This document shows, in pieces, positions 2,653 to 28,166 of a DNA stretch of 64,000 nt. The position numbers were made by a program, and so were the translations under genes. The notes beneath the pieces were generated by a model. It was not told the origin of the DNA. It searched no databases and worked only from the letters and a program-made list of their open reading frames with translations. The stretch's first letter is position 1. Each line of letters begins with the position of its first letter. The DNA is from Sulfurovum sp. UBA5198 (GTDB taxonomy: Bacteria > Campylobacterota > Campylobacteria > Campylobacterales > Sulfurovaceae): the NCBI GenBank assembly GCA_002412865.1, contig DHVW01000007.1:7806-71805 (forward strand), written 5' to 3'.

Positions 2653-2800
2653 TTATAAATGAATATGGCAGCTCACATGTAGTTATCCTTGCATGGTTGC
2701 GTAAATTATCAATTATGATAATAAGCGTTAAGGACTACAGAGGCGAAAACCAGAAAGGCGATAATATCGCAAAAAATAATAATATACCCAAGGAGATACA

Positions 2801-3616
2801 ATGGTAACAATGAAAGACTTGCTCGAATGTGGCGTACACTTCGGACACCAAACAAGAAGATGGAATCCAAAGATGAAGAAATATATCTTTGGTGAGAGAA
2901 AAAAAATATATATAATCGATTTGCAAAAAACACTTCGTTATTTCAAATATACTTATAATGTAGTAAGAGATGCAGCAGCTGAGGGTCAAACTGTACTTTT
3001 TGTTGGTACAAAAAAACAAGCTAGAGTTGCAGTTGAACAAGCGGCGATCTCATGTGGCATGCCATATGTAGCAAACAGATGGTTGGGCGGAATGCTTACA
3101 AACTATCCAACTATCCAAAAATCTATTCGTAAACTTGAAATCATCGAGCAAATGCAAGAGAATGGTCAAATCAATCTTTTGACTAAAAAAGAAGCGTTAA
3201 TGCTTAGCCGTAAAAAAGACAAATTAAGCGATTATCTTTCTGGTTATAGAAATATGAAAAAACTACCAGATATGATGTTCGTTGTGGATGTAGTTAAAGA
3301 ACATATTGCTGTTCTTGAAGCTAGAAGAATGGGTATGAAAGTTGTAGCTCCACTTGATACAAACTGTGACCCTGATTTAGTAGATTATCCAATCCCTGGA
3401 AACGATGATGCAATCAGAGCGATTGAGCTTTTCTGTAAAGAGATGGCTGAAGCAATCAACGAAGGTAAAGCTATCTACGCTGAAAATCAAGGCAAAACAA
3501 CTCATGTAAATGCTGATACTGTAACAGAAGAAGAGATGAGTGCAATGATAGAAGAAGTGGCTGTTGAAGCAGAAGTTGCTACTGAAACTGCAACAGAAAC
3601 AACAACGGAGGCTTAA
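2801..3616 (+). CDS. rpsB: 30S ribosomal protein S2
   Basis: [34 protein letters not shown] is almost identical to Campylobacter S2. Has an acidic C-terminal tail. RBS AAGGAG lies upstream. Confidence 0.95.
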
Positions 3617-3618
3617 TT

Positions 3619-4680
3619 ATGGCAAACTTTGGAGCTGCGGATATTAAAAAACTCAGAGAGATGACTGATGCTGGTATGATGGATTGCAAAAAAGCACTTA
3701 CTGAAGCTGATGGCAATATGGACAAAGCTGTTGAATGGCTAAGAGACCAAGGCATAGGAGCTGCAGCTAAAAAAGCTGGTAAAGTTGCTGCTGAGGGTCT
3801 TATTGGAATGAAAGTAGAAGGCAAAAAAGCAGTCATCGTAGAGCTAAACTCACAAACTGACTTTGTTGCACAAAATGATAAATTCAAAAATACACTTAGT
3901 GATATTGTGAATCATGCATTTGCTAATAACATTGACAACGCAGAGGCTCTTAACGCTTCACAAATGGCCGATATGCCATTTAGTGAATACCTATCGTTAC
4001 AAATATCTACAATTGGTGAAAATCTAGTTGTTCGTCGTTCTGGCATGATTAGCGGAGATGAAAATACAGCAGTTAATGGCTATATTCATGCAAATGGTCA
4101 AGTTGGTGTAATTATTGCAGCTACTTGCGATAGTGCAGCTACTGCTGAGGCAATGACTGCGGCACTCAAAGATGTTTCTATGCACGCAGCTGCTATGAAA
4201 CCAACTACTCTTAGCTATAAAGACTTTGACGCTGCATTTGTAGCTGATGAGACTGCTGGTAGAATTATCAAAATAGAAAAAGAGAATGAAGAGCGAAGCC
4301 GTCTTGGTAAAACACTTCTGAATATTCCTAAATATATCTCTATGTCTCAACTAACTCCAGCTGTATTAGCTGAAGCAGAAGAGGCTATCAAAGCGAAACT
4401 AAAAGCTGAGGGTAAACCTGAGCAAATATGGGACAAAATTGTTCCAGGACAAGTAGCTAGATTTATCGCAGATAACACTACTCTTGATCAAGAGCAGTGC
4501 TTGCTTGACCAAAACTTTGTAATGGATGATAGCATCAATGTTGCTAAATATATCTCAAACAAAGCAGAGGCAGCTGGTGGAACTGCTACTATATCTACAT
4601 TTATCCGTCTTGAAGTTGGTGAAGGTATTGAAGTTGCAGAAGAAGATTTTGCAGCTGAAGTCGCTAAACAAATGGCGTAA
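3619..4680 (+). CDS. tsf: translation elongation factor Ts
   Basis: 353 aa. UBA-like N-terminus (IKKLREMTDAGMMDCKKALTEADGNMDKAVEWLR). Immediately follows rpsB. Confidence 0.95.
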   Translation: MANFGAADIKKLREMTDAGMMDCKKALTEADGNMDKAVEWLRDQGIGAAAKKAGKVAAEGLIGMKVEGKKAVIVELNSQTDFVAQNDKFKNTLSDIVNHAFANNIDNAEALNASQMADMPFSEYLSLQISTIGENLVVRRSGMISGDENTAVNGYIHANGQVGVIIAATCDSAATAEAMTAALKDVSMHAAAMKPTTLSYKDFDAAFVADETAGRIIKIEKENEERSRLGKTLLNIPKYISMSQLTPAVLAEAEEAIKAKLKAEGKPEQIWDKIVPGQVARFIADNTTLDQEQCLLDQNFVMDDSINVAKYISNKAEAAGGTATISTFIRLEVGEGIEVAEEDFAAEVAKQMA

Positions 4681-4730: not shown

Positions 4731-5492
4731 TTAAATATATTTTTTCAATAACACTTTAGCATCAATATATCCAAGCTCAAACATCTCATCTAAGTGCTTA
4801 AATGAAACTAGAGAATAGTCACGTAACTTATCATTAGTGATAACACTATCGCAATTCTTTTGACTATTTTGTGAATTAGAGTAAGTATTCAGATACACTG
4901 TTCTTTTTATGAAATCATACATGCTGTGTTGCTTTTGAGATATATTTATTGGGTGTAAATTCACGCCAACAATTGGATAATTATAGTTCAAAAGTGGCAT
5001 AAATGGCATATGGTTTACAAAACCACCATCTGCAAGCAAATGACCTTCATGCTCAACAGGAGGAAAAAGAGGAACAAGTGCGCAAGATCCAAAACAGAGC
5101 TTTGGAATCTTTCCACTAGAATAATACAGCTCTTGACCGCTTATCAAATCTAATGCAGTCACAAACATAGGCATATTTAACTTCTCTAAACTTTCACACG
5201 GTATAAGCTCGTTGATTATTTGCGTATTATAATTTATTTTAAATATAGATTTACGAAAATAATTAAAAGAAAATATATCCCTAAATTCAGGAGATTTGAA
5301 AATCTCAAGCTGTCTTTGAGGCTTAACACCGGCTGCGTAGCTTGTTCCTATGACGGCTCCAATAGAAGTCCCACAAATAGCTTTAACTGATATTCCCATC
5401 TCGTCAATTCTCTGCAATACACCAAGATGATATGCCCCTCTAGCCGCACCACCAGATAATGCTAGCGAAATTCCACTCATACTTGCTCCCAA
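4731..5492 (-). CDS. patatin-like phospholipase
   Basis: 253 aa. Oxyanion motif GGAARG, nucleophile elbow GTSIGA and Asp motif ADGGF. Confidence 0.75.
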   Translation of the reverse strand: MGASMSGISLALSGGAARGAYHLGVLQRIDEMGISVKAICGTSIGAVIGTSYAAGVKPQRQLEIFKSPEFRDIFSFNYFRKSIFKINYNTQIINELIPCESLEKLNMPMFVTALDLISGQELYYSSGKIPKLCFGSCALVPLFPPVEHEGHLLADGGFVNHMPFMPLLNYNYPIVGVNLHPINISQKQHSMYDFIKRTVYLNTYSNSQNSQKNCDSVITNDKLRDYSLVSFKHLDEMFELGYIDAKVLLKKYI

Positions 5493-6214
5493 TGTATTAC
5501 TTCAAACCTACCATCATAATGCTCAACAATAGCACTACAATTCTCTACCCAATCACCACAATTATAGTATATTATATCTTCTATCATCTTTGCTTCTGGC
5601 TTATGAATATGACCACATATCACACCATCATATTTTTTATGTTTAGCGTGGGCCGTGAGTATCTCTTCAAAGTTATTAATAAAACTAATTGAACTTTTAA
5701 CATTGTCCTTGATATATTTAGAGAACGACCAATATCTATTTATACCACACATTTTACGAAAATTATTTAGTATATGATTTAAAAATAATACAAAGTCATA
5801 GCCTATATCCCCAGCTATTGCAAGCCATTTATGGGTCATAGTTATACTATCAAAAAAATCACCATGAGTCACAAGGTATCTTTTACCATCAACACCAATA
5901 TGCGTAAGCTCATTTACTATTTGCAAATTATCTCCCATGAAAAGTGGTGCAAAAGGACGCAAAAACTCATCATGATTTCCAGTAATAAAACATACTTCGG
6001 TTCCTTTGCGTGCTTTTTTGAGAACTTTTTGAATAATATTGGAGTGTGATTGCAACCATTTGAATTTTCTCTTTATAGCCCAACCATCTATGATGTCACC
6101 AACAAAAAACAGCTTGTCACTCTCGTTATGTTTTAAAAAATTCAAAAACTCATGAGCTTTTGCATATTTAGTTCCTAAGTGTATATCCGAGATAAATATC
6201 GATTTATATTGCAT
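5477..6214 (-). CDS. lpxH: calcineurin-like metallophosphoesterase, LpxH-type UDP-2,3-diacylglucosamine diphosphatase candidate
   Basis: 245 aa. SDIHLG, VGDIIDGW, GNHDEF, THGD and CGHIHKP metal-binding motifs. Overlaps the patatin gene by 16 nt. Confidence 0.6.
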   Translation of the reverse strand: MQYKSIFISDIHLGTKYAKAHEFLNFLKHNESDKLFFVGDIIDGWAIKRKFKWLQSHSNIIQKVLKKARKGTEVCFITGNHDEFLRPFAPLFMGDNLQIVNELTHIGVDGKRYLVTHGDFFDSITMTHKWLAIAGDIGYDFVLFLNHILNNFRKMCGINRYWSFSKYIKDNVKSSISFINNFEEILTAHAKHKKYDGVICGHIHKPEAKMIEDIIYYNCGDWVENCSAIVEHYDGRFEVIHWEQV

Positions 6215-6350: not shown

Positions 6351-9300
6351 ATGAGAGAGCTTTTTAGGTTTGTAGGATTTATGCCATTTCTATGGATAGT
6401 ATTTTTGAATTCTGCTGTGGATGTCGCACATAAAATTACACTACAAAATGTTTTACTTAAAAGCTTTGATGGTGGTGAGCTTATTATACTCACAGCACTT
6501 GTGAATGCAATGATATTGTTGCCTTTTATATTTTTATTTTCTCCATCAGGTTTTATTGGAGATAGATTTGCAAAGGTAATTACTGCCAGATATGCTGCAT
6601 TTGCAGCTATTTTGATATCTTTGGCTATTACTATTAGCTATTATATGGGTGAGTTTTATGTAGCATTTGGGCTTACTTTGCTGCTCTCGGTACAGAGTGC
6701 AATGTACGCTCCTGCAAAATACGGCATGATAAAGGAGCTAACTGGTGAAGATAATCTTGGCGAAGCCAATGGGGCAGTTCAGGCTATAAATATACTGGCT
6801 ATTCTAATATCCTCACTTCTATTTTCGATAGTTTTTGAATACCTCTATTTAAAAGATATTTTGACACCATCAGAGATATTGCGTTCAGTTGCACCTATTG
6901 GTTGGTTACTTGTGGTACTTTCATCAATTGAGTGGTTATTGACATTCAAGATGCCGCTCGCACCTAGTAAATCTCCAGAAATAAGCTTTTCAATAAAAAG
7001 TTTTTTCTCCCTAAACTATCTAAAAACTAATATGAAAACACTCAAGAAGGACGAAAATGTTTGGCTTGGCATAATCGGGCTTAGTATATTTTGGGGTGTT
7101 GGGCAACTAGTTCTTGCTGCATTTCCAGCTCATTACAAAAGTGTAATGGGCGAAGATAATGCAGTTATGATACAGATTATTCTTGCTCTTAGTGGTGTTG
7201 GTGTTGTGACTGGTTCACTATTAGCTGGCAAATATTCAAGGCATCATATAGAGCTTGGTATTGTGCCACTTGGTGCTGTTGGACTTCTAGTTTCACTTGT
7301 TATTTTTGCATATGCGACAACTATTCCCATGATGATTTTTGCTAGTTTACTCTTTGGTTTATTTGGTGGCTTATTTATTGTTCCACTTAATGCTCTAATC
7401 CAGTTTTTCGCACCACCAAAAGAAGAAGGTACAATTCTAGCTGGTAGCAATTTTATACAAAATATTGTTATGGTTGGATTTTTAGCATTCTCAGTTATAA
7501 CTGTAGAATTTTTAAAATTTGATGCAAAAGCTCTATTTTTGAGTGCAGGATTTGTTACACTTATTGGCTCATTGTTTGTAATCAAAAAGATTCCACATCT
7601 CTTTACTAGAGTGCTTTTGATGCCGATACTCAAAACGAGATACAAACTCACAGCAACAGGTATACAAAATATTACAAAAACTGGTGGGATGCTTTTGCTT
7701 GGTAATCATATTAGTTTTTTAGATTGGTTATTGCTGCAAGTGGCATCTCCAAGACCGATTAAATTTGTAATGGCAAAGAGCTATTACAACATATGGTATC
7801 TAAGGTGGTTTTTGGATTTCTTTAATGTCATACCGATATCAAGCATAGGTAGCAAGGGTGCGTTAGAAGCAGTGAAACAAAGACTAAACAATGGAGAAGT
7901 AGTCGCTATATTTCCAGAGGGTCGTATAAGTTATAATGGTCAAATGAATGAATTCAAAAAAGGGTATGAGCTAGCCCTTGGTGACACCAACCACCCAATA
8001 GTTCCGTTTTATATTCATGGCTTGTGGGGCTCGACATTCTCTAAGGCAAATGGGTTTTATAAGAGCATGATAGGTAATGGGGCTAGGAGAAGTGTGCGGG
8101 TAGCTTTTGGTAAGCCAATGTCCTCAACTGCAAAACCACACGAAGTAAAGCAAGAGGTCACAGAATTATCAAACCAAACATGGTCCCACATGATAGATAA
8201 TCTTGGTACATTGCCACAACATTGGCTAAGATCAGCAAAATCAAATCTTAAAAAACGAGCTATTGTGGACAGTACGGGGGCAGATTTATCTAATCTAAAG
8301 ATGATTACTGCGGTGTTTATGTTTTCTAACTACTTTAAAAATTTAAATAGTGAAAACATTGGTGTAATTTTACCAGCTTCAGCCATTGGTTCAATAGCTA
8401 ACATGGCACTTATGGTTACAGGGAAAGTGCCAGTAAATCTAAACTATACACTTAGTAGTGAAGCTATGATGTATGCGCTAGACAAAGCCTCTATTAAGCA
8501 TATCATCACTTCACGCAAATTTGTCACTAAGCTTGAGAGTAAAGGATTTGAATTTTCTACTACAATAAAAGACAAGCTGATATTTGCAGAAGATATAGGC
8601 GAAAGCTTCTCTAGGTCGAATAAGGCAAACTCACTACTAAAATCACTCCTATTGCCTAGATTTTTATTGGAATTTTTGTATATAAAAAAGGTGGATACGA
8701 ACCAAACGGCAACGATTTTATTTAGTAGTGGAAGTGAAGGTATGCCAAAAGGGGTAGAGCTAACACATAAAAACATCATGGCAAATATTAAACAAGTATC
8801 TGCACTTTTGAACTTTCAAGATAAAGATGTGATGCTAAATTCGCTGCCCATATTCCATTCTTTTGGACTAACAGTAACAACACTTCTTCCATTGTGTGAA
8901 GGGGTAAGTATCATCAGTGTGCCAGACCCAACAGATGCCGTTGCTGTTGGCACGTTGGCTGCAAGACACGGGGCTACTATTATGTTTGGGACTTCAACGT
9001 TTTATAGACTATATACCATGAATAGAAAACTACACCCTCTAATGTTTGGAACGATTCGCATGGCGGTTGCAGGGGCAGAAAAACTAAAACCAGAGGTACA
9101 AAAAAACTTCAAAGAGAAGTTTGGGCTAGATATCCAAGAGGGATATGGGGCTACAGAAACATCGCCAGTTGTGTCAGTTAATATGCCAAATTCACTTGAT
9201 TTGGATTCAATGCAAGTAGTAATAGGCAACAAAGAAGGCACAGTGGGACAAGGAATCCCTGGAACAATAATACGAATTATTGACCCGCAGACAAATGAGA

Positions 9301-9803
9301 TATTAGCACCAAATATAGATGGTATGATATTAGTTGGTGGGTCACAAGTCACGAAAGGTTATCTTGGTGATCCTGAAAAAACAGAGAGTGTGATAGTTAC
9401 GATAGATGGTATTAGATATTACAAAACTGGCGATAAAGGGCATCTTGATGAAGATGGATTTATCACGATAGTTGACAGATATAGTAGATTTGCAAAAATA
9501 GGGGGAGAGATGATAAGCCTAGGCATGGTTGAGGAGTCGATAGAAAAACTTTTCGGGGATAACATTCAAGCTGTTGCAGTGGCACTAAATGATGACAAAA
9601 AAGGCGAACAAGTTGCACTTTTATTTAGTGGCAAATTAGACAGTGAAACAGTAAAACAACAAATAAAAAGTAGCGAAATAATACCGTTAATGCAGCCAAG
9701 CCTATATATAAGACTAGATGAATTACCTAAACTAGCCAGCGGTAAAACAGATTTCTCAAAAGCAAAAACTATTGCTATGGAACAATTAAATGCAAACAGT
9801 TGA
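6351..9803 (+). CDS. aas: triple-domain lysophospholipid transporter (LplT-like MFS) / 1-acyl-sn-glycerol-3-phosphate-type acyltransferase / acyl-ACP synthetase (Aas-like) fusion
   Basis: 1150 aa. About 420-aa multi-TM N-terminus. PlsC motifs NHISFLD and FPEGRIS. AMP-binding motifs SSGSEGMPKGV, GYGATET and YKTGD. Confidence 0.75.
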   Translation: MRELFRFVGFMPFLWIVFLNSAVDVAHKITLQNVLLKSFDGGELIILTALVNAMILLPFIFLFSPSGFIGDRFAKVITARYAAFAAILISLAITISYYMGEFYVAFGLTLLLSVQSAMYAPAKYGMIKELTGEDNLGEANGAVQAINILAILISSLLFSIVFEYLYLKDILTPSEILRSVAPIGWLLVVLSSIEWLLTFKMPLAPSKSPEISFSIKSFFSLNYLKTNMKTLKKDENVWLGIIGLSIFWGVGQLVLAAFPAHYKSVMGEDNAVMIQIILALSGVGVVTGSLLAGKYSRHHIELGIVPLGAVGLLVSLVIFAYATTIPMMIFASLLFGLFGGLFIVPLNALIQFFAPPKEEGTILAGSNFIQNIVMVGFLAFSVITVEFLKFDAKALFLSAGFVTLIGSLFVIKKIPHLFTRVLLMPILKTRYKLTATGIQNITKTGGMLLLGNHISFLDWLLLQVASPRPIKFVMAKSYYNIWYLRWFLDFFNVIPISSIGSKGALEAVKQRLNNGEVVAIFPEGRISYNGQMNEFKKGYELALGDTNHPIVPFYIHGLWGSTFSKANGFYKSMIGNGARRSVRVAFGKPMSSTAKPHEVKQEVTELSNQTWSHMIDNLGTLPQHWLRSAKSNLKKRAIVDSTGADLSNLKMITAVFMFSNYFKNLNSENIGVILPASAIGSIANMALMVTGKVPVNLNYTLSSEAMMYALDKASIKHIITSRKFVTKLESKGFEFSTTIKDKLIFAEDIGESFSRSNKANSLLKSLLLPRFLLEFLYIKKVDTNQTATILFSSGSEGMPKGVELTHKNIMANIKQVSALLNFQDKDVMLNSLPIFHSFGLTVTTLLPLCEGVSIISVPDPTDAVAVGTLAARHGATIMFGTSTFYRLYTMNRKLHPLMFGTIRMAVAGAEKLKPEVQKNFKEKFGLDIQEGYGATETSPVVSVNMPNSLDLDSMQVVIGNKEGTVGQGIPGTIIRIIDPQTNEILAPNIDGMILVGGSQVTKGYLGDPEKTESVIVTIDGIRYYKTGDKGHLDEDGFITIVDRYSRFAKIGGEMISLGMVEESIEKLFGDNIQAVAVALNDDKKGEQVALLFSGKLDSETVKQQIKSSEIIPLMQPSLYIRLDELPKLASGKTDFSKAKTIAMEQLNANS

Positions 9804-21664: not shown

Positions 21665-22228
21665 ATGGGATTAAAATCAGATAAATGGATACGAGAAAAA
21701 TCTCTAAAAGAGGAGATGATAGCTCCATTTTGTGAAGCACTCGTAGGCGAGGGTGTAGTTAGTTATGGACTTAGTAGCTATGGATATGACATACGAGTGA
21801 GCAATGAGTTTAAAATATTTACAAACATAAATGCTCAAGTAGTTGACCCAAAAGATTTTGACGATGCCAATGTAGTGGATTTCGTAGGTGATGTATGCAT
21901 CGTCCCACCGAACTCATTTGCACTTGCTAGAACCATAGAGTATTTCAAAATGCCAAGCGATACTCTAGCAATATGCTTAGGCAAAAGTACATACGCAAGG
22001 TGTGGTATTATTGTCAATGTCACACCATTTGAGCCTGGGTTTGAGGGACATATTACCATTGAAATATCAAATACAACTCCGCTTCCTGCTAAAATTTATG
22101 CCAACGAAGGCATCGCTCAAGTGTTATTTTTACAAGGCGACGAACAGTGCGAAACCACATACAGCGACCGCAAAGGCAAATATCAAAAACAAGAGGGAAT
22201 AACTCTGCCAAGGATTTTGAAAAAATAA
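21665..22228 (+). CDS. dcd: dCTP deaminase
   Basis: 187 aa. MGLKSDKWI..., GYDIRV and [12 protein letters not shown] are typical Dcd motifs. Confidence 0.9.
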
Positions 22229-22285
22229 TTGAATTAAATAGCTTTGCCCCATAACCAACAGGGAGTCTACTGAATTCACAAGTTA

Positions 22286-22304
22286 TCACACTTTATCAAT
22301 CCAC
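22286..22304. repeat. left 19-bp direct repeat of the island
   Basis: Exact match to 24089-24107. Flanking bases differ on both sides. Confidence 0.9.
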
Positions 22305-22595
22305 TTTTTGAAAAACAAATAGATGCTCGTGCATAATAAGTAAAAAGTTTGCTTCTTTGCTTTTATTTACCCAAAATCCAGTGGCTTTGCAATTATGTTG
22401 TTGCTTGATAATATCTTCCTTTAAAACAAATCCTGCATTTAAAAACCTTTGCATGACCATAAATGCTAGTGGTTGATACATTTTATTTCGTCTTGTGTCG
22501 CCCATGAGAATAGCACAAAATTTATTTGGCTTCGAGATTATAACGAGTTCAGCAGTTAAGATTAAAATAATTAAATTCTTTACTTGCAAGTTCAA
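22296..22595 (-). pseudogene. C-terminal remnant of a SAM-dependent DNA (N4/N6) methyltransferase
   Basis: The last ~75 aa (AILMGDTRRNKMYQPLAF...GFVLKEDIIKQQHNCKATGFW...FLLIMHEHLFVFQK) resemble the C-terminal end of a methyltransferase family I remember ending HEYLFVFKK. No FxGxG or DPPY motifs. The 5' part overlaps the preceding ORF. Confidence 0.35.
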
Positions 22596-23070
22596 TCCCT
22601 ATGATTTCATCAAAAGTTGTATTTTTTAGATACTCTTGATGTAGTTTTAGATTTTCAAATGCTTCATTAACATCTAAACCTTTTTCAAAACCTATTATTT
22701 GCATATTTTCTATATCAGGAGTATCTGATTCACTATTTGGTTGAAATGTTATTCCCTCAAAAGTTATAAATATAAAATCTTTGAGTAAGTTTTTTTCATT
22801 TTTCAAAATTTTATCAATAAAACCTTTTGACATCAATTCAAGAGTTTGCAAATCTAAATCTTGTAAGTCTTCCCATAATTCAAAGGTGTCATATTGTAAA
22901 TCTTCTATTAAATTTTCATAACCATCACTTGGAACTATCTCAACAAAATCGTTGTCATCATCTGTGTAACTTACATACTCTCTGTACATAATTTTAAATG
23001 GAAAGTAAAATGATGGGTTATTTAGTAAATATCTTATTATCTTTAAAGCTAATTCTCTTGTTATTGGCAT
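22549..23070 (-). CDS. hypothetical highly acidic protein co-transcribed with the DpnI-like gene
   Basis: 173 aa, D/E-rich, no TM helix or signal. The ATG directly abuts the DpnI stop (23071 / 23070). Confidence 0.5.
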   Translation of the reverse strand: MPITRELALKIIRYLLNNPSFYFPFKIMYREYVSYTDDDNDFVEIVPSDGYENLIEDLQYDTFELWEDLQDLDLQTLELMSKGFIDKILKNEKNLLKDFIFITFEGITFQPNSESDTPDIENMQIIGFEKGLDVNEAFENLKLHQEYLKNTTFDEIIGIELASKEFNYFNLNC

Positions 23071-23835
23071 TTATAGTACCTCATAATTTCCTCTTTTTGT
23101 AAATTTTAAAAATCTTTTATCTCTTAAAATTTGAAGTTGTTGTCTAATTTTTGCTTGTATATTGTTATTTTCAGGATGTTGTATTTTTAAATATTTTTCA
23201 AATTGATACATATCGCTTAAATCAAAATTTGCTCTTTGTAGCTTTTCGATACATTTAATAATATCAAGTAGCCAACCTTTAGACTGCACAGTGCTTGAGT
23301 CGTTTAGAAAACTTATTTTATCCCACTCGTCCATAATTTTATTTTTACTTTGAATTTGCTTGTCTTTAATGTAAAATATTTTTCCACTATTTGGAATGCT
23401 TGATATATCAATGTTGCACATTATATAATTTGGTTGATTTGGTATTCCTTTGCTTCTTGGTATAACCATACTGGGTACAAATAAATAACTAGGTACTGCT
23501 AAGAAATTAACTATCTCATAATTAGTTTTGTCATAATTTAAAAAGAAAAAATTTGGATTTGTTTCGCTTCTAATTCTCTCTATCATAGTATTGTAAGCAC
23601 CGTCAGCAATGGTTTTGCCAAGTACTTTACTGTTCTTACTTTTTAACTCATAGTCTTCATTGCAAATTTTGCAATAAAAATCTGCAACAGGTCTATTGTT
23701 CTCGTATTCATCAATACTATTTCCACAATTAGGGCAGTATACATGCTCGTTGACCCAATTTTCGGTCAAAACTCTTATTTTTTGAGAGTTGCTAGTATAA
23801 TTGTCACAGAGTGGAGAAAATAAATTTAAAGTCAT
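23071..23835 (-). CDS. dpnI: DpnI-family methyl-directed (G-m6A-TC) type IIM restriction endonuclease
   Basis: 254 aa, the same length as pneumococcal DpnI. Colinear blocks: YTSNSQKIRVLTENWV, YCPNCG, ENNRPVADFYCKIC, ELKSK, DGAYNTMIERI, NPNFFFLNY, GWL, and the C-terminal winged-helix IRQQLQILRDK. Confidence 0.85.
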   Translation of the reverse strand: MTLNLFSPLCDNYTSNSQKIRVLTENWVNEHVYCPNCGNSIDEYENNRPVADFYCKICNEDYELKSKNSKVLGKTIADGAYNTMIERIRSETNPNFFFLNYDKTNYEIVNFLAVPSYLFVPSMVIPRSKGIPNQPNYIMCNIDISSIPNSGKIFYIKDKQIQSKNKIMDEWDKISFLNDSSTVQSKGWLLDIIKCIEKLQRANFDLSDMYQFEKYLKIQHPENNNIQAKIRQQLQILRDKRFLKFTKRGNYEVL

Positions 23836-24020
23836 TATTTGATTGCAAAATAGAGTTCAAAAAACACTGCTCCGCCACCTAAAAATGGTTCGTGATAGTT
23901 CTCAAAAGTATTTGGAAACAGTGGCAAAAGTTGAGACATTAGCCCTCTTTTGCCTCCAACCCATTTGATAAATGGAGAATATGTTTGCATACTATTTGCC
24001 CTATCAATGCTTATAGTCAT
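23835..24020 (-). pseudogene. N-terminal remnant of a Dam-type (D12 class) N6-adenine DNA methyltransferase
   Basis: 61 codons: [22 protein letters not shown]...[15 protein letters not shown] (motif X plus FxGxG motif I), then TAA. The TAA shares 1 nt with the DpnI ATG. No DPPY region. Confidence 0.6.
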
Positions 24021-24088
24021 ATATTGCTCCCATCTTGTGATTATCTAGTAGCATTATACACATTTTTATTGGTGTAGAGATGAAATGC

Positions 24089-24107
24089 TCACACTTTATC
24101 AATCCAC
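24089..24107. repeat. right 19-bp direct repeat of the island (also the 3' end of the asnB-like gene)
   Basis: Exact match to 22286-22304. Confidence 0.9.
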
Positions 24108-25861
24108 CGACAATAACTATAAAGTGCAAAAATCTGATGTTTAAATCCACCACTTGTGGCTTTACTTAGTAAAAACTCAACCTCATCGGCATTGAAAATC
24201 TTTCTCTCATTATTTACTTTGCGTATGAGTTCCAGTTCATTCTCTTCTATGAGCCACTCCATATATGGATAGCTAAATCCTCGTTTTTTTCGTTCTATGA
24301 TTTGCTTTGGTAAATATTCATAGGCTATATCTTTGATGATGGCCTTGCTCTTGTCGCCAAACCTTATTTCAGGATCAATACTAAATGCACACTCTACCAC
24401 TCGCTCGTCTAAAAATGGGCTTCTAGCCTCCAATCCACATATCATACTAGCTCTATCTAGCTTTGGCAAGAACAAATCACCAAGCTTGATTTTCATATCA
24501 CAAAAGCTATACCAGTCAAGCTCACTGACTTGCCCACTTTTTAGAAATTCATCTCTATATTTTTGTATTATATTTTGCGAGCTATTGTCTTTGACATTTC
24601 TCTTTAAAAGCCTATTTTGTTGTAAATCAGTGAAAAGCTCCGCAGTAGACCTGAAAAGCAATGAGCCTTCTAGTGCTCTTTTGTGCCACTCCCACTCTTT
24701 GTTTTGTGAGTAGCTACTTTTGAGATGATTTAGTAACCATTTTGGATATTTAAGTTCGCTTAGTTTTTCTATTTCTATAAATTCTTTGTATGTTTTATAT
24801 CCCAAAAATAGCTCATCACTTCCATCTCCTGTAATGACTACTTTTTTGCCGTCAGTTTTGATTTTATTTAGTACGCTTAATAGTGGTAACATAGCAGGAT
24901 CGCCCAAAGGAGTTTCGAAATATCTATCTATCGTTTTGAAATTCTCAAAAAACTGCTCTTTTGTGAACACTACCTCTGTATGATTTGAGTCAATATGCTC
25001 ACTAACCATTCTAGCATATTGTGTCTCGTCATATTTGCTATATTTCTCTTCATATCCTACGCAATATGTGTCTATTTTTTGCTCTTTTGATAAAATAGCT
25101 GCAATAAGCGAGGAGTCAACTCCACCAGAGAGTAAAACTCCAAACGGAACACTAGGAATACGACATTTCACTGCATTTTTTAGTGCATCTTTTGTGGCTA
25201 TTTTGGCTTCTGATGGTGTGTGATATTTAATCTCATTTGAGAGTGGGTTAAATCTATTGGCTACTCTAATCTCTCCATCTTCAAACTCTACTTTTCCGCC
25301 AGCAGAAACACTATATATTCCAGTAAAGAATGTATCAGGAGATATAGTAGTCTGAAAGCTTAGATAGCATGGCAAAGCATCATATCTAACAACGAGGTTA
25401 CCGCCAAGTGCTTTTATCTCACTTGCAAACCAAAATGAATCTCCAAGCATTCTATAAAAAAGTGGTTTTTTGCCTACTTTATCTCTAAAAAGCTTGAGTT
25501 TTTTGCCATCATAAATAGCTATGGCATACATTCCGCTGATATGCTCTACAAACGCATCGCCATATATGCAATAATACTCATATATTACCTCTTCTTCTGA
25601 TGCATTGCTTGTACCGATTTTTTTTCCAAGCTCCCTATGATTATATATCTCTCCATTGAGTAAAATAGTAAAACTTGATTTTTCAAATATTCTAGTTGCA
25701 TTATCACAAGAGCTTGTTATGGCAAGGCGATGAATTCCAAAAAAGCTACTATCATTAGATATATAAGCACTTCCATCTTCGCCCCTATGTACTAAACTCA
25801 TATAGCTTTTTATTGTATTGTCTTTATCATGCTCCCCTATAACTCCAAATACGGCACACAC
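24089..25861 (-). CDS. asnB: asparagine synthase (glutamine-hydrolysing) family amidotransferase
   Basis: NGEIYNHRELG, PP-loop LLSGGVDSSLIA. A GTG start at 25861 gives M-C-AVFGVIGEH, the required Cys-2 Ntn nucleophile, with GGAG 8 nt upstream. The ORF-track TTG start at 25930 adds a spurious hydrophobic leader. Confidence 0.8.
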   Translation of the reverse strand: MCAVFGVIGEHDKDNTIKSYMSLVHRGEDGSAYISNDSSFFGIHRLAITSSCDNATRIFEKSSFTILLNGEIYNHRELGKKIGTSNASEEEVIYEYYCIYGDAFVEHISGMYAIAIYDGKKLKLFRDKVGKKPLFYRMLGDSFWFASEIKALGGNLVVRYDALPCYLSFQTTISPDTFFTGIYSVSAGGKVEFEDGEIRVANRFNPLSNEIKYHTPSEAKIATKDALKNAVKCRIPSVPFGVLLSGGVDSSLIAAILSKEQKIDTYCVGYEEKYSKYDETQYARMVSEHIDSNHTEVVFTKEQFFENFKTIDRYFETPLGDPAMLPLLSVLNKIKTDGKKVVITGDGSDELFLGYKTYKEFIEIEKLSELKYPKWLLNHLKSSYSQNKEWEWHKRALEGSLLFRSTAELFTDLQQNRLLKRNVKDNSSQNIIQKYRDEFLKSGQVSELDWYSFCDMKIKLGDLFLPKLDRASMICGLEARSPFLDERVVECAFSIDPEIRFGDKSKAIIKDIAYEYLPKQIIERKKRGFSYPYMEWLIEENELELIRKVNNERKIFNADEVEFLLSKATSGGFKHQIFALYSYCRWIDKV

Positions 25862-25952: not shown

Positions 25953-28166
25953 ATGAAAAATTTAATTATCGTAGAATCACCAGCAAAAGCTAGAACCATA
26001 ACGACTTTCTTGGGTAAAGACTATAAAGTAGTGGCTTCAAAAGGTCATATTAGAGACCTTCCTGCATACAACTTTGGCATCAAGATAGATGAAGAGAGCG
26101 GCGATTTTTTGCCTCAATATACAGTCCCAAAAGAAGCATCAGCGACCGTTAAAGAACTAAAAGCATTAGCCAAAGATGCTGAGAACATCTTTATCGCAAC
26201 CGATGAAGATAGAGAGGGTGAGGCTATTGGATTTCATATTGCAACTGCTATTGGTAAAGAACCGCTGTCATTACCCAGAATAGTATTTCATGAGATTACT
26301 AAGTCTGCTATCAATCATGCACTTGAAAATCCACGGATTATAGATATGCAAAGTGTAGATGCACAGCAAGCCAGAAGGCTACTTGACCGCATGGTGGGAT
26401 ATAAACTATCTCCACTACTTGCTAGTAAAATACAAAAAGGTCTTAGTGCAGGGAGAGTGCAAAGCTCAACACTCAAAATCGTAGTTGACAAAGAACGAGA
26501 GATTCAAGCGTTTATTGCCGAGGAATACTGGAGTATTGATGGCGTATTTGCTCCCGATATAGAAGCTGCACTAATAAAACACAAAACCACCAAAATAGAT
26601 AAACTAACTATCACAGACAAACAAATGGCTGATGAGATAGAAAGCTCATGTATGAGTGATAAATATACTATTAGTGAAATAGAAACGAAATCTAAAAAAA
26701 GCAAAACTCCACCTCCTTTTATGACATCTACATTACAACAAAGTGCATCAACTCAATTAGGATTTTCTCCTAAAAAAACAATGATGGTAGCACAAAAGCT
26801 TTATGAAGGTGTTAAGACCGATAAAGGCGTGATGGGTGTCATAACCTACATGAGAACTGATAGTTTAAATCTTGCAAAAGAGGCAGTAGAGAAAGCTCGT
26901 GAGTACATAAATAGCAACTTTGGAGAAAAGTATCTACCTGAGCAACCACGAATTTATACAAGCAAAGCAAAGGGGGCTCAAGAAGCTCACGAAGCAATCC
27001 GCCCAACAATGGTAGAGTTTGATCCAAAAACTGCTAGCGAATATCTGGCTGCTGATGAGCTAAAGCTATATAAGCTAATTTATAATAGATTTTTAGCATG
27101 TCAAATGAATGAGGCAATTATCGAGTCACAAAATATTCTATTTGAAGGCAATGAAAATACATTTAAAGTCAATGGTAAAAGACTAATATTTGATGGTTTC
27201 TATAGGGTAACAGGATATACAGAAAAAGATAAATTATTGCCAAAACTAGAGCCAAAAAGCGTCATATTATTAAATAAAATAGTTTCACTTCAACATTTTA
27301 CAGAACCACCTGCAAGGTACAATGAAGCAAGCCTAATCAAAATGATAGAATCTCTTGGTATTGGTAGACCAAGTACATATGCCCCAACCATCTCTATACT
27401 AGAAACACGAAAATATATATCATTTGTCGAGAAAAGAATTCACCCAGATGAGAGTGCATTTTTGGTAACAAAAATGCTTGAAGAGCATTTTCCAGAAATT
27501 GTAGACAGTAGCTTTACTGCGAATATGGAAGAGAAGCTTGACCTTGTTGCAAGTGGTGAGCAGAATTGGCAAACTATTTTAAAAGAGTTCTATAATCCAT
27601 TTATGGAAAAAATAGCTGCAGGAAAAGAGAATATAATCAGCCTAAAAACTGCCACACCTACTGGCGAAAAATGCCCTGAGTGCGATAGCGAACTTCTGCT
27701 TAGAAAAGGTAGATTTGGTGAATTTATAGCATGTAGTAATTTTCCTAAATGCAAATATACAAAAAACATGGGCAAAACTGAAGGCACAGAAGAAGATGAG
27801 AATAAAGGTGAAGCCACTGACGAGAAATGTGACAAATGTGGTGCAGACATGACCATAAAAGGTGGCAAGAGAGGTAAATTCTTGGCGTGCACAGCATATC
27901 CGACTTGTAAAAATACGAAATCATTAACTGGGGCGGAAGAGATAAAGGCCCCATGTCCAGAATGTGGCGGGAAGCTAAATGAGAGGCTTGGTAAGCGTGG
28001 TAAATTTTATGGATGTAGTAATTATCCAGAATGTAATTTTATAGCAAACTTCGAGCCAATAGAACATAAATGCAAAGAGTGTGGATATATGATGGGCAAA
28101 AAAATACTTAAAACAAAAGAGTATTATGAGTGTTACAAATGCAAACACAAAGAGGATATAGTATGA
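25953..28166 (+). CDS. topA: DNA topoisomerase I
   Basis: MKNLIIVESPAKARTI (TOPRIM), an active-site Tyr region, and four C-terminal CxxC...CxxC zinc ribbons. The ATG at 25953 is preferred over the ORF-track start at 25818. Confidence 0.95.
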   Translation: MKNLIIVESPAKARTITTFLGKDYKVVASKGHIRDLPAYNFGIKIDEESGDFLPQYTVPKEASATVKELKALAKDAENIFIATDEDREGEAIGFHIATAIGKEPLSLPRIVFHEITKSAINHALENPRIIDMQSVDAQQARRLLDRMVGYKLSPLLASKIQKGLSAGRVQSSTLKIVVDKEREIQAFIAEEYWSIDGVFAPDIEAALIKHKTTKIDKLTITDKQMADEIESSCMSDKYTISEIETKSKKSKTPPPFMTSTLQQSASTQLGFSPKKTMMVAQKLYEGVKTDKGVMGVITYMRTDSLNLAKEAVEKAREYINSNFGEKYLPEQPRIYTSKAKGAQEAHEAIRPTMVEFDPKTASEYLAADELKLYKLIYNRFLACQMNEAIIESQNILFEGNENTFKVNGKRLIFDGFYRVTGYTEKDKLLPKLEPKSVILLNKIVSLQHFTEPPARYNEASLIKMIESLGIGRPSTYAPTISILETRKYISFVEKRIHPDESAFLVTKMLEEHFPEIVDSSFTANMEEKLDLVASGEQNWQTILKEFYNPFMEKIAAGKENIISLKTATPTGEKCPECDSELLLRKGRFGEFIACSNFPKCKYTKNMGKTEGTEEDENKGEATDEKCDKCGADMTIKGGKRGKFLACTAYPTCKNTKSLTGAEEIKAPCPECGGKLNERLGKRGKFYGCSNYPECNFIANFEPIEHKCKECGYMMGKKILKTKEYYECYKCKHKEDIV

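Follow-up and report, generated by a model that had tools for sequence, protein, structure and literature searches.

A DpnI-type restriction cassette among the remains of a DpnII-type operon, bounded by 19-bp direct repeats at the dcd/asnB site of Sulfurovum

A 1.8-kb island bounded by exact 19-bp direct repeats was identified between dcd and an asnB-like gene in a 64,000-nt stretch of the genome of the sulfur-oxidising bacterium Sulfurovum sp. UBA5198 (contig DHVW01000007.1, positions 7,806 to 71,805), hereafter called the window. The interval between the repeats is very probably a DpnI-type cassette, cutting methylated GATC, set within what is left of a DpnII/MboI-type M1-R-M2 operon. The island is best seen as a DpnI cassette replacing Dam/DpnII and as a restriction-modification (RM) cassette bearing the scar of its insertion into a hotspot between housekeeping genes, both of which are kinds already known. 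With it, the "epigenetic conflict" cassettes described from Neisseria (dam/drg) and from the pneumococcus (DpnI/DpnII) gain a Sulfurovaceae example, and the swap from GATC-methylating to methyl-GATC-cutting genes recurs in environmental Campylobacterota. Being a small, clean restriction cassette with an apparently target-derived scar at a housekeeping hotspot, it also bears on the movement of defence genes without mobility genes. The part that a specialist might find surprising is a truncated methylase fragment, apparently under selection, that travels with the DpnI genes.

Gene content of the island

Four genes occupy the interval, all on the minus strand and running from the asnB stop toward dcd: M1N, a DpnI gene, an acidic open reading frame (ORF) of the AF_1447 family, and M2C. 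Domain searches bore out the gene content listed in a preliminary description of the same DNA, namely a Dam remnant, a DpnI-like endonuclease, an acidic ORF, and a methyltransferase remnant. M1N (23835..24020, minus strand) is the 61-aa N-terminal stump of a D12-class Dam methyltransferase, which retains motif I (FLGGGAV) and covers positions 1-38 of the 253 in the Pfam profile, and its stop overlaps the DpnI start codon (TAATG). The next gene (23071..23835, minus strand) encodes an intact type IIM endonuclease of the DpnI family with 254 aa. Its N-terminal PD-(D/E)XK domain matched PF06044 (residues 1-179, E 4.7e-70) and its C-terminal winged-helix domain matched PF17726 (residues 185-252, E 3.1e-31). 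The protein also matched PADLOC mREase_II (7e-104) and aligned over its full length, to residue 252, with Streptococcus pneumoniae DpnI 4ESJ (E 1.6e-75), and the catalytic D...E-x-K motif is kept in this alignment (PVADFYC...ELKSK).

The DpnI stop abuts the ATG of the acidic ORF (22549..23070, minus strand), which encodes 173 aa with an isoelectric point of 4.15 and was assigned to PF27350 "AF_1447" by precomputed annotation. Directly downstream of DpnI, it occupies the slot that DpnD has in other cassettes. It found no match in the local Pfam, NCBIfam, PADLOC, and PHROGs libraries or among PDB sequences, and its single-sequence AlphaFold model reached a pLDDT of 48.

M2C (22296..22595, minus strand, with its core at 22299-22550) comprises the C-terminal ~82 aa of a circularly permuted PF01555 methyltransferase related to DpnA. 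It was called as a 99-aa ORF with a TTG start, no ATG precedes the core, and both motif I and motif IV are absent. It matched positions 172-249 of the 249 in PADLOC PDLC03376 (type II methylase) and its identity to the C-terminal end of the complete M2 of Fusobacterium vincentii (244 aa) is 58%. Full-length M2 proteins (244-247 aa) were found in F. vincentii and in a metagenome-assembled genome (MAG) of Nitrospirae (L163; loci from other genomes are given here by such labels). Intact M2 is a circularly permuted PF01555 methylase with an N-terminal motif I and the ending ...HE-x-LFVF-x-K, and the window keeps it only from residue ~155-160 of 244-247. A split methylase was considered as well and rejected, as a hidden N-terminal half of M2 was looked for upstream of M2C and none was found.

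The two methylase pieces come from different genes rather than from a single Dam gene: M1N belongs to the D12 class and M2C to the permuted PF01555 type. The intact operon of F. vincentii has the order Dam, DpnII endonuclease (PF04556, 4.7e-109), Mrr, and M2, and the window therefore reads as the two ends of such an operon with the middle replaced by a DpnI module. What is found is a DpnI gene in the place of GATC-methylase/DpnII genes, with truncated methylase ends left around it.

Upstream of M1N, a region of 68 nt (24021..24088, minus strand) contains a TATAAT element (24058-24053) and, as ribosome-binding site, GGGAG (24031-24027), both called by reading the sequence; a scan for promoters and terminators gave the same counts as shuffled sequences. 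This region is presumed to be the promoter of the former methylase operon, which would now drive M1N-DpnI-AF_1447(-M2C). Homology to other DpnI cassettes starts at the DpnI ATG or at most ~40 nt from it and never upstream, and DpnI would therefore have brought no promoter of its own. The gene would thus be transcribed from the captured M1 promoter, with its translation coupled to the 61-codon M1 stump at the TAATG overlap.

The core of the cassette, which would now be immobile, is taken to be a two-gene DpnI module (endonuclease and partner) within the M1 and M2 ends of the operon. Its predicted target is incoming DNA that carries G-m6A-TC, such as phage or foreign DNA from Dam-positive sources. 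Both methylase genes at the dcd/asnB locus are truncated, and with its two GATC methylases out of action there the chromosome would escape cleavage. No GATC site occurs within the island. Across the window, GATC occurred at 0.24 of its expected frequency (49 vs 202), and other palindromes were avoided as well, with observed/expected values of 0.04 for ACGT, 0.12 for GCGC, 0.25 for CGCG, 0.27 for CCGG, and 0.30 for GGCC. The depletion of GATC fits past GATC-directed restriction and is weak evidence for it, as several others are just as depleted, while the avoidance of short palindromes in general suggests a long history under many restriction systems.

The 19-bp repeats and the low-GC interval

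The 19-mer TCACACTTTATCAATCCAC is present in two exact copies at 22286-22304 and 24089-24107, spaced 1803 bp apart, and at each edge of both copies the identity ends and the flanking sequence diverges at once, which agrees in every detail with the preliminary description. The analysis covered one 64-kb stretch of the genome, so that an integrase acting in trans, extra 19-mers, or an active Dam elsewhere are possible. No further copies of the 19-mer were found in the window with up to 3 mismatches allowed, at a chance expectation of 0.05 (<=3 mismatches), and two copies occurred in 0 of 100 shuffles. Assemblies made independently from other samples, L001 (SRR1313278) and L002 (SRR1313272), contain the repeat pair at an equal distance, and it is therefore no assembly artefact.

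The asnB-like gene terminates in the right repeat (24089..24107), which supplies its final five codons and its stop (WIDKV and stop, within ...CRWIDKV). The left repeat (22286..22304), read as a duplicate of this asnB 3' terminus, begins 57 nt past the dcd stop (22226-22228), and the first 9 nt of the left repeat form, on the minus strand, the last two codons of M2C and its stop (V-D-TGA). These positions relative to asnB and dcd had been described correctly. The 1784 bp between the repeats have a guanine-plus-cytosine (GC) content of 29.0%, compared with 35.7 +/- 2.2% for all 1784-bp windows, and form the lowest-GC window of that size in the 64 kb, so that the AT-richness noted earlier was evident in windowed GC.

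The window outside the island is housekeeping DNA. The insert consists of RM genes only and carries no mobility gene; the absence of an integrase or transposase from the block and the placement of the repeats exactly at its edges had both been stated before and were found to be so. Terminal inverted repeats are absent, as the inner ends (TTTTTGAAAAAC... and ...GAGATGAAATGC) are non-complementary. No transposase domain occurred in any ORF of the interval, to which the screen for transposases was confined. An integrase was not found between the repeats, and tblastn with a single tyrosine integrase probe (from L158) gave no match in the 64 kb. The island is not classified as an integrative element because no integrase was found, nor as a transposon because inverted ends and a transposase are lacking. 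When the 19-mer, the 57-nt spacer, and the 68-nt spacer were compared by blastn-short with all fetched loci and the rest of the window, only chance matches were obtained.

The dcd/asnB site in relatives

The island lies between two conserved, convergent flanks: dcd for dCTP deaminase (21665..22228, plus strand) to the left and the asnB-like gene for a glutamine-hydrolysing asparagine synthase (24089..25861, minus strand) to the right. The synteny topA-asnB-dcd is conserved across Sulfurovaceae. The DpnI island was present at this site in the window and in L001-L004, and it was absent from every relative found, including L166 with 92% DNA identity over asnB-topA. This absence upholds the earlier view of the block as accessory. 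The stretch of the window without homology to any relative extends from 22232 to 24094. The 57 nt that separate the left repeat from the end of dcd (22229..22285) have no detectable homologue in the dcd-asnB interval of any relative; this spacer is either intergenic DNA specific to the lineage or the donor, or it was imported along with the island.

The gap between the two genes varied widely in content. The closest relative, L166, has a dcd/asnB spacer of ~96 nt, and L005 has one of 150 bp (7674-7826) with a perfect hairpin, ATTCCTGC-GTAG-GCAGGAAT. The stops of dcd and asnB abut or overlap in L006-L011 (palindromic, ~9773-9782), and a BON-LysM gene lies between them in L149 (2634-3095) and L150 (2803-3264). 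The same conserved flank pair is therefore found with varying or no cargo across genomes, as described for minimal mobile elements, and the convergent dcd/asnB gap is a small hotspot for gene-content change. No intact methylase or DpnII allele occurred at this locus among the relatives, all of which were empty or carried BON-LysM. A relative more than 92% and less than 100% identical was not found by asnB scans of genome and metagenome contigs, by an asnB protein search, or by exact-protein look-ups.

Origin of the repeat and the mosaic asnB end

The asnB gene of the relatives ends in ...TGG YTG GAT AAA AGA TAR (WLDKR and stop), and that of the window in TGG ATT GAT AAA GTG TGA (WIDKV and stop). 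The right repeat aligns in frame with the asnB end of the relatives and matches it at 12 of 19 nt, including L166. Given this in-frame alignment, the 19-mer is derived from asnB and the left copy is the duplicate. From the other side, DNA homology of the cassette to six other DpnI cassettes ends 0-3 nt from the inner edge of the left repeat; the exception is L156, where it runs 9 nt into the left repeat through chance similarity. At six related cassette loci, flanking direct repeats of at least 10 nt were absent except for one AT-only 10-mer, and the repeat therefore belongs to this insertion and not to the cassette family. Judged from these alignments, the repeat fits an insertion scar, which would be either a target duplication or an att core.

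A reading in which the M2C stop inside the left repeat marks the repeat as cassette-borne was rejected as weak, because the tails of M2C homologues past FVFQK vary from 0 to >10 residues. An overwriting of the asnB end, considered from the 12/19 match to L166, was also rejected, as this match was not significantly below the local identity of 79% (P = 0.08).

The identity between the window and L166 changes along the right flank. The 5' part of topA is 97-100% identical and most of asnB 89-95%, and the last ~300 nt of asnB (24089..24388, minus strand) drop to 79%. This 3' segment in the window is about equally far from L166, L005, L149, and L150, and among the other lineages it is one of the best conserved segments. 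The tract of 79% identity is likely to be a recombination tract, probably imported together with the island from a more distant asnB allele. An exchange of the cassette by transformation, which the preliminary description had named as one possibility, gains support from this mosaic 3' end.

The asnB-like protein was 73% identical to its orthologue in L005, while topA and dcd products reached 93 and 98%, respectively. A second patch of low identity to L166 (73-87%) was located at 26549-26728 within topA, which is elsewhere 97-100% identical. The pattern of identity in asnB and topA points to frequent recombination in this region.

Persistence of the truncated methylase

M2C had been regarded as a remnant, which fits the evidence poorly: it does not behave like debris, it accompanies DpnI in several lineages, and it is under strong purifying selection. 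All 119 of its 119 closest homologues are truncated ORFs of 67-141 aa. An exhaustive search returned truncated relatives with up to 77-81% identity and full-length proteins with at most 63%, and the full-length Nitrospirae copy of M2 is 73% identical to M2C.

The fragments compared for substitutions were those of the window (22296-22550, minus strand), L156 (5001-5402), L157 (5001-5402), L164 (5001-5270), and L165 (5001-5267). Over 82 shared codons, M2C differs from L156 and L164 at 8-9% of non-synonymous and 58-68% of synonymous sites. The ratio of non-synonymous to synonymous differences (pN/pS) among M2C-type fragments was 0.05-0.16, with synonymous sites near saturation. L156 and L157, which share an identical truncation junction and an ORF of 133 codons, gave a pN of 0.024 and a pS of 0.39 (Fisher p 1.7e-16). 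In every pair compared, the M2C fragment had fewer amino-acid changes than the neighbouring intact DpnI. An alignment of 100 sequences showed that M2C of the window keeps 9 of 9 invariant and 31 of 33 near-invariant residues, and no long ORF lies on the opposite strand. The AlphaFold model built from an alignment of 100 sequences reached a pLDDT of 80.5 and showed a beta-alpha-beta-alpha-beta unit, for which Foldseek found nothing significant in the PDB (best E = 0.09).

This substitution pattern indicates selection on the protein product of the truncated methylase. Tentatively, M2C may be a selected mini-protein that corresponds to the C-terminal ~82-133 aa of a permuted DpnA-like methylase and lacks the S-adenosylmethionine-binding motif, and it may form a conserved third component of DpnI-type cassettes in Campylobacterota. 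It could modulate the methyl-dependent nuclease or confer immunity to it, or it could act as a dominant-negative "anti-methylase" blocking the return of GATC methylation. The M2C-type copy in the Nitrospirota locus L163 adjoins a full-length M2 and has no DpnI gene. If functional, M2C would represent an accessory component new to methyl-dependent restriction systems.

Related cassettes in other genomes

DpnI homologues are common in Sulfurimonas, Sulfurovum, and Arcobacteraceae, and in the loci examined DpnI was always followed by a small partner gene. The partner belongs to the AF_1447 family in L152 and L153-155 and to DpnD/PcfM in L164 and L165, and L156-L162 carry a 229-aa protein with an AF_1447 N-terminus. 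In most of these loci a 3' fragment of M2, the PF01555 methylase, follows the partner, with 133 aa in L156-162 and with 88-89 aa in L164/L165, and a 60-nt relic of it remains in L153-155; no such fragment was found in L151 and L152. L165 is an intermediate, with an M1 of 236 aa (D12, profile positions 1-190 of 253), DpnI, DpnD, and an M2C of 88 aa. Since methylase stumps accompany DpnI modules in several loci, nesting in DpnII-type operons is recurrent and no peculiarity of the window. A literature search brought up no account of DpnI cassettes from Sulfurovum, Sulfurimonas, or Campylobacterota.

Several settings of these modules were observed in passing. In L165 at ~4941-5000, an out-of-frame relic of 23 codons, DMVFADPPYFLSNNGLSIQSGK, lies between the DpnD gene and the methylase fragment; it presumably resembles the motif IV region of pneumococcal DpnA closely and is a further layer of methylase debris. 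The module of DpnI, 229-aa protein, and methylase fragment in L158 (268-4733) adjoins an AAA_14/DUF4143 ATPase gene and a tyrosine integrase gene, and the DpnI module may ride on an integrative island in some genomes. The closest DpnI homologue outside the species (82% identity; L151, 1306-1975) is immediately preceded by an MNT/HepT (nucleotidyltransferase/HEPN) toxin-antitoxin pair and a zeta-toxin-like gene, and so stands in a small defence or addiction cluster. In the Nitrospirae MAG locus L163, full-length M2 is followed by at least 4 more C-terminal fragments (2694-3437 for M2, then 4196-4423, 5076-5339, 6052-6177, and 6927-6980), interleaved with ParE and PIN/VapB toxin-antitoxin genes, and it looks as if cassettes had piled up successively at the 3' end of M2. 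Scans of viral contigs with DpnI and M2C gave no match and hence no phage vehicle.

Discussion

Taken as a whole, the likely explanation of the island is an immobile restriction cassette that entered by illegitimate insertion and was later transferred by recombination. The cassette would have inserted once directly after the asnB stop and duplicated the last 19 bp of asnB, by an illegitimate event with target duplication as in RM units of Helicobacter and Campylobacter. The duplication would date from the original insertion in a donor lineage, and the block would later have moved into the present lineage, taking along ~300 nt from the end of asnB and probably also the 57-nt spacer, by homologous recombination in the housekeeping flanks, that is, by natural transformation in the style of a "minimal mobile element". 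The swap of DpnI for DpnII could have occurred in place or before arrival. As for the repeat itself, the balance of the observations leans towards a scar of illegitimate insertion rather than an att core.

Several observations weigh against this explanation. The preliminary description had predicted an empty site reading ...GTTA, a single 19-mer, and CGACAA..., and no exact empty site of this kind was found, so that we infer the single pre-insertion copy. The closest empty site, that of L166, is 8% diverged overall and 21% beside the junction, and its asnB end matches the 19-mer at the 12 positions given above. It offers no counterpart to the 57-nt spacer: the L166 spacer is unrelated, and their alignment scored below shuffled sequences. 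With 19 bp, the repeat is shorter than the 30-bp cut-off for a "long target duplication" and falls within the range of att cores. The recombinational import, furthermore, rests on one relative (L166) that covers only 39 nt of dcd.

Site-specific integration would make the 19-mer an att core at the 3' end of asnB and the island a mini-element resembling a cis-mobilisable element (CIME), with a tyrosine integrase encoded elsewhere and the capacity to excise still; the excised circle would then carry the junction M2C end-19mer-GCATTTCATC. A length of 19 bp is usual for exact att cores, and integration commonly targets the 3' ends of conserved genes. M2C terminates within the repeat, as expected of a core that belongs to the element, and a related DpnI-X-M2C module stands next to an integrase gene in L158. 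The tyrosine integrase probe from that locus, however, found no counterpart in the 64-kb window, no room for remains of an integrase exists between the repeats and the RM genes, and the six related cassettes lack comparable repeats, none of them carrying the 19-mer. The position of the M2C stop is also weak evidence, as M2C tails past FVFQK vary freely, and site-specific integration is considered unlikely. The decayed integrase-bearing element that had been suggested earlier is unlikely too, because 68 nt separate the repeat on the asnB side from the M1 start, the repeat on the dcd side directly adjoins the M2C stop, and related cassettes lack the repeats. A Campbell-type event, in which a circular cassette with chance identity of ~19 bp to asnB entered by a single crossover in short homology, would produce exactly the observed structure, and when the 3' end of M2C in L156 (TTGCTTTGA) is compared with the start of the repeat (GTGGATTGA), 6 of the 9 nt agree, a hint of prior microhomology. 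Yet 19 bp of identity between unrelated sequences is very unlikely to arise by chance, and in the other relatives M2C homology stops 0-3 nt from the repeat edge. Homologies of 19 bp are moreover no longer than the minimum that RecA-dependent exchange usually needs to be efficient, and a crossover of this kind is quite improbable.

Direct repeats directly at the boundaries of an insert could also be a target-site duplication made by a transposase acting on the cassette ends, and some insertion sequences do give duplications of 19-26 bp (IS1630, cited in PMC2853133). The lack of terminal inverted repeats and of a transposase domain in the ORFs of the interval, together with the lack of conserved ends beyond the coding sequences in related cassettes, largely refutes this explanation, which retains very little probability. 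Least probable, to the point of being negligible, is a chance pair of 19-mers unrelated to the arrival of the block. Only the AT-rich composition speaks for it, and it is countered by the expectation of 0.05 with 3 mismatches allowed, by the absence of two copies from all 100 shuffles, and by the position of the copies at the cassette ends, where DpnI-cassette homology stops, at or just within the block of 22232-24094. With illegitimate insertion and later recombination as the favoured explanation, the interpretation given in the preliminary description is overall partly supported.

Comparison with known systems

A CIME is an att-flanked cis-mobilisable element without an integrase. The island shares with it short exact end repeats, the absence of a recombinase inside, and the 3' end of a gene as target, but it shows no sign of a cognate integrase or of excision, and related cassettes lack the repeat. 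For the flanking repeats, the closest likeness is with RM insertions bearing target-derived repeats. Such inserts contain RM genes only, are low in GC, and are flanked by direct repeats that stem from the target and extend over the end of a gene on its 3' side, and they are known from epsilonproteobacteria among others (PMC2853133). These features of the long target duplication (Nobusato 2000; Furuta, Abe and Kobayashi 2010) are common to the island, whereas its repeat of 19 bp is shorter than the 30-bp criterion (PMC2853133), a single-copy target was not found in an empty-site genome with the same allele, and 19 bp is equally compatible with an att core.

In gene content, the DpnI/DpnII cassettes of the pneumococcus are closest. 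They swap cleanly between common flanks. The DpnI cassette (dpnC-dpnD) and the DpnII cassette (dpnM-dpnA-dpnB) are alternatives in S. pneumoniae (PMC3573125). The island shares with the former a full-length 4ESJ-like endonuclease followed by a small second gene, which in L164 and L165 itself belongs to the DpnD/PcfM family, and the DpnII counterpart consists of a D12 methylase, a PF01555 methylase, and the DpnII endonuclease. Unlike the pneumococcal cassettes, the DpnI module of the island is embedded in pieces of a DpnII-type operon and its partner is AF_1447 instead of DpnD, and the intact relative in F. vincentii has the order M1-R-(Mrr)-M2 where the pneumococcal operon has M-A-R.

At the neisserial drg locus, drg is inserted in dam, which is truncated, and a second, incomplete copy of the flanking leuS is present; this locus has been likened to minimal mobile elements that are thought to spread by transformation (PMC4269198). 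The island differs from it in being the wreck of a two-methylase M1-R-M2 operon, whose 3' piece comes from a second methylase of the PF01555 type, in having an AF_1447 partner after DpnI, and in belonging to a different phylum; no conspecific allele with an intact methylase was found at the island locus, where the relatives are empty. In common with drg at leuS/dam, a DpnI-family endonuclease lies inside a GATC-methylase gene and truncates the methylase, the GC content is below that of the host, the flanks are housekeeping genes without mobility genes, and a truncated duplicate of a flanking gene is present (leuS there, 19 bp of asnB here). The neisserial insertion of drg in dam is the closest known system in function and in nested architecture.

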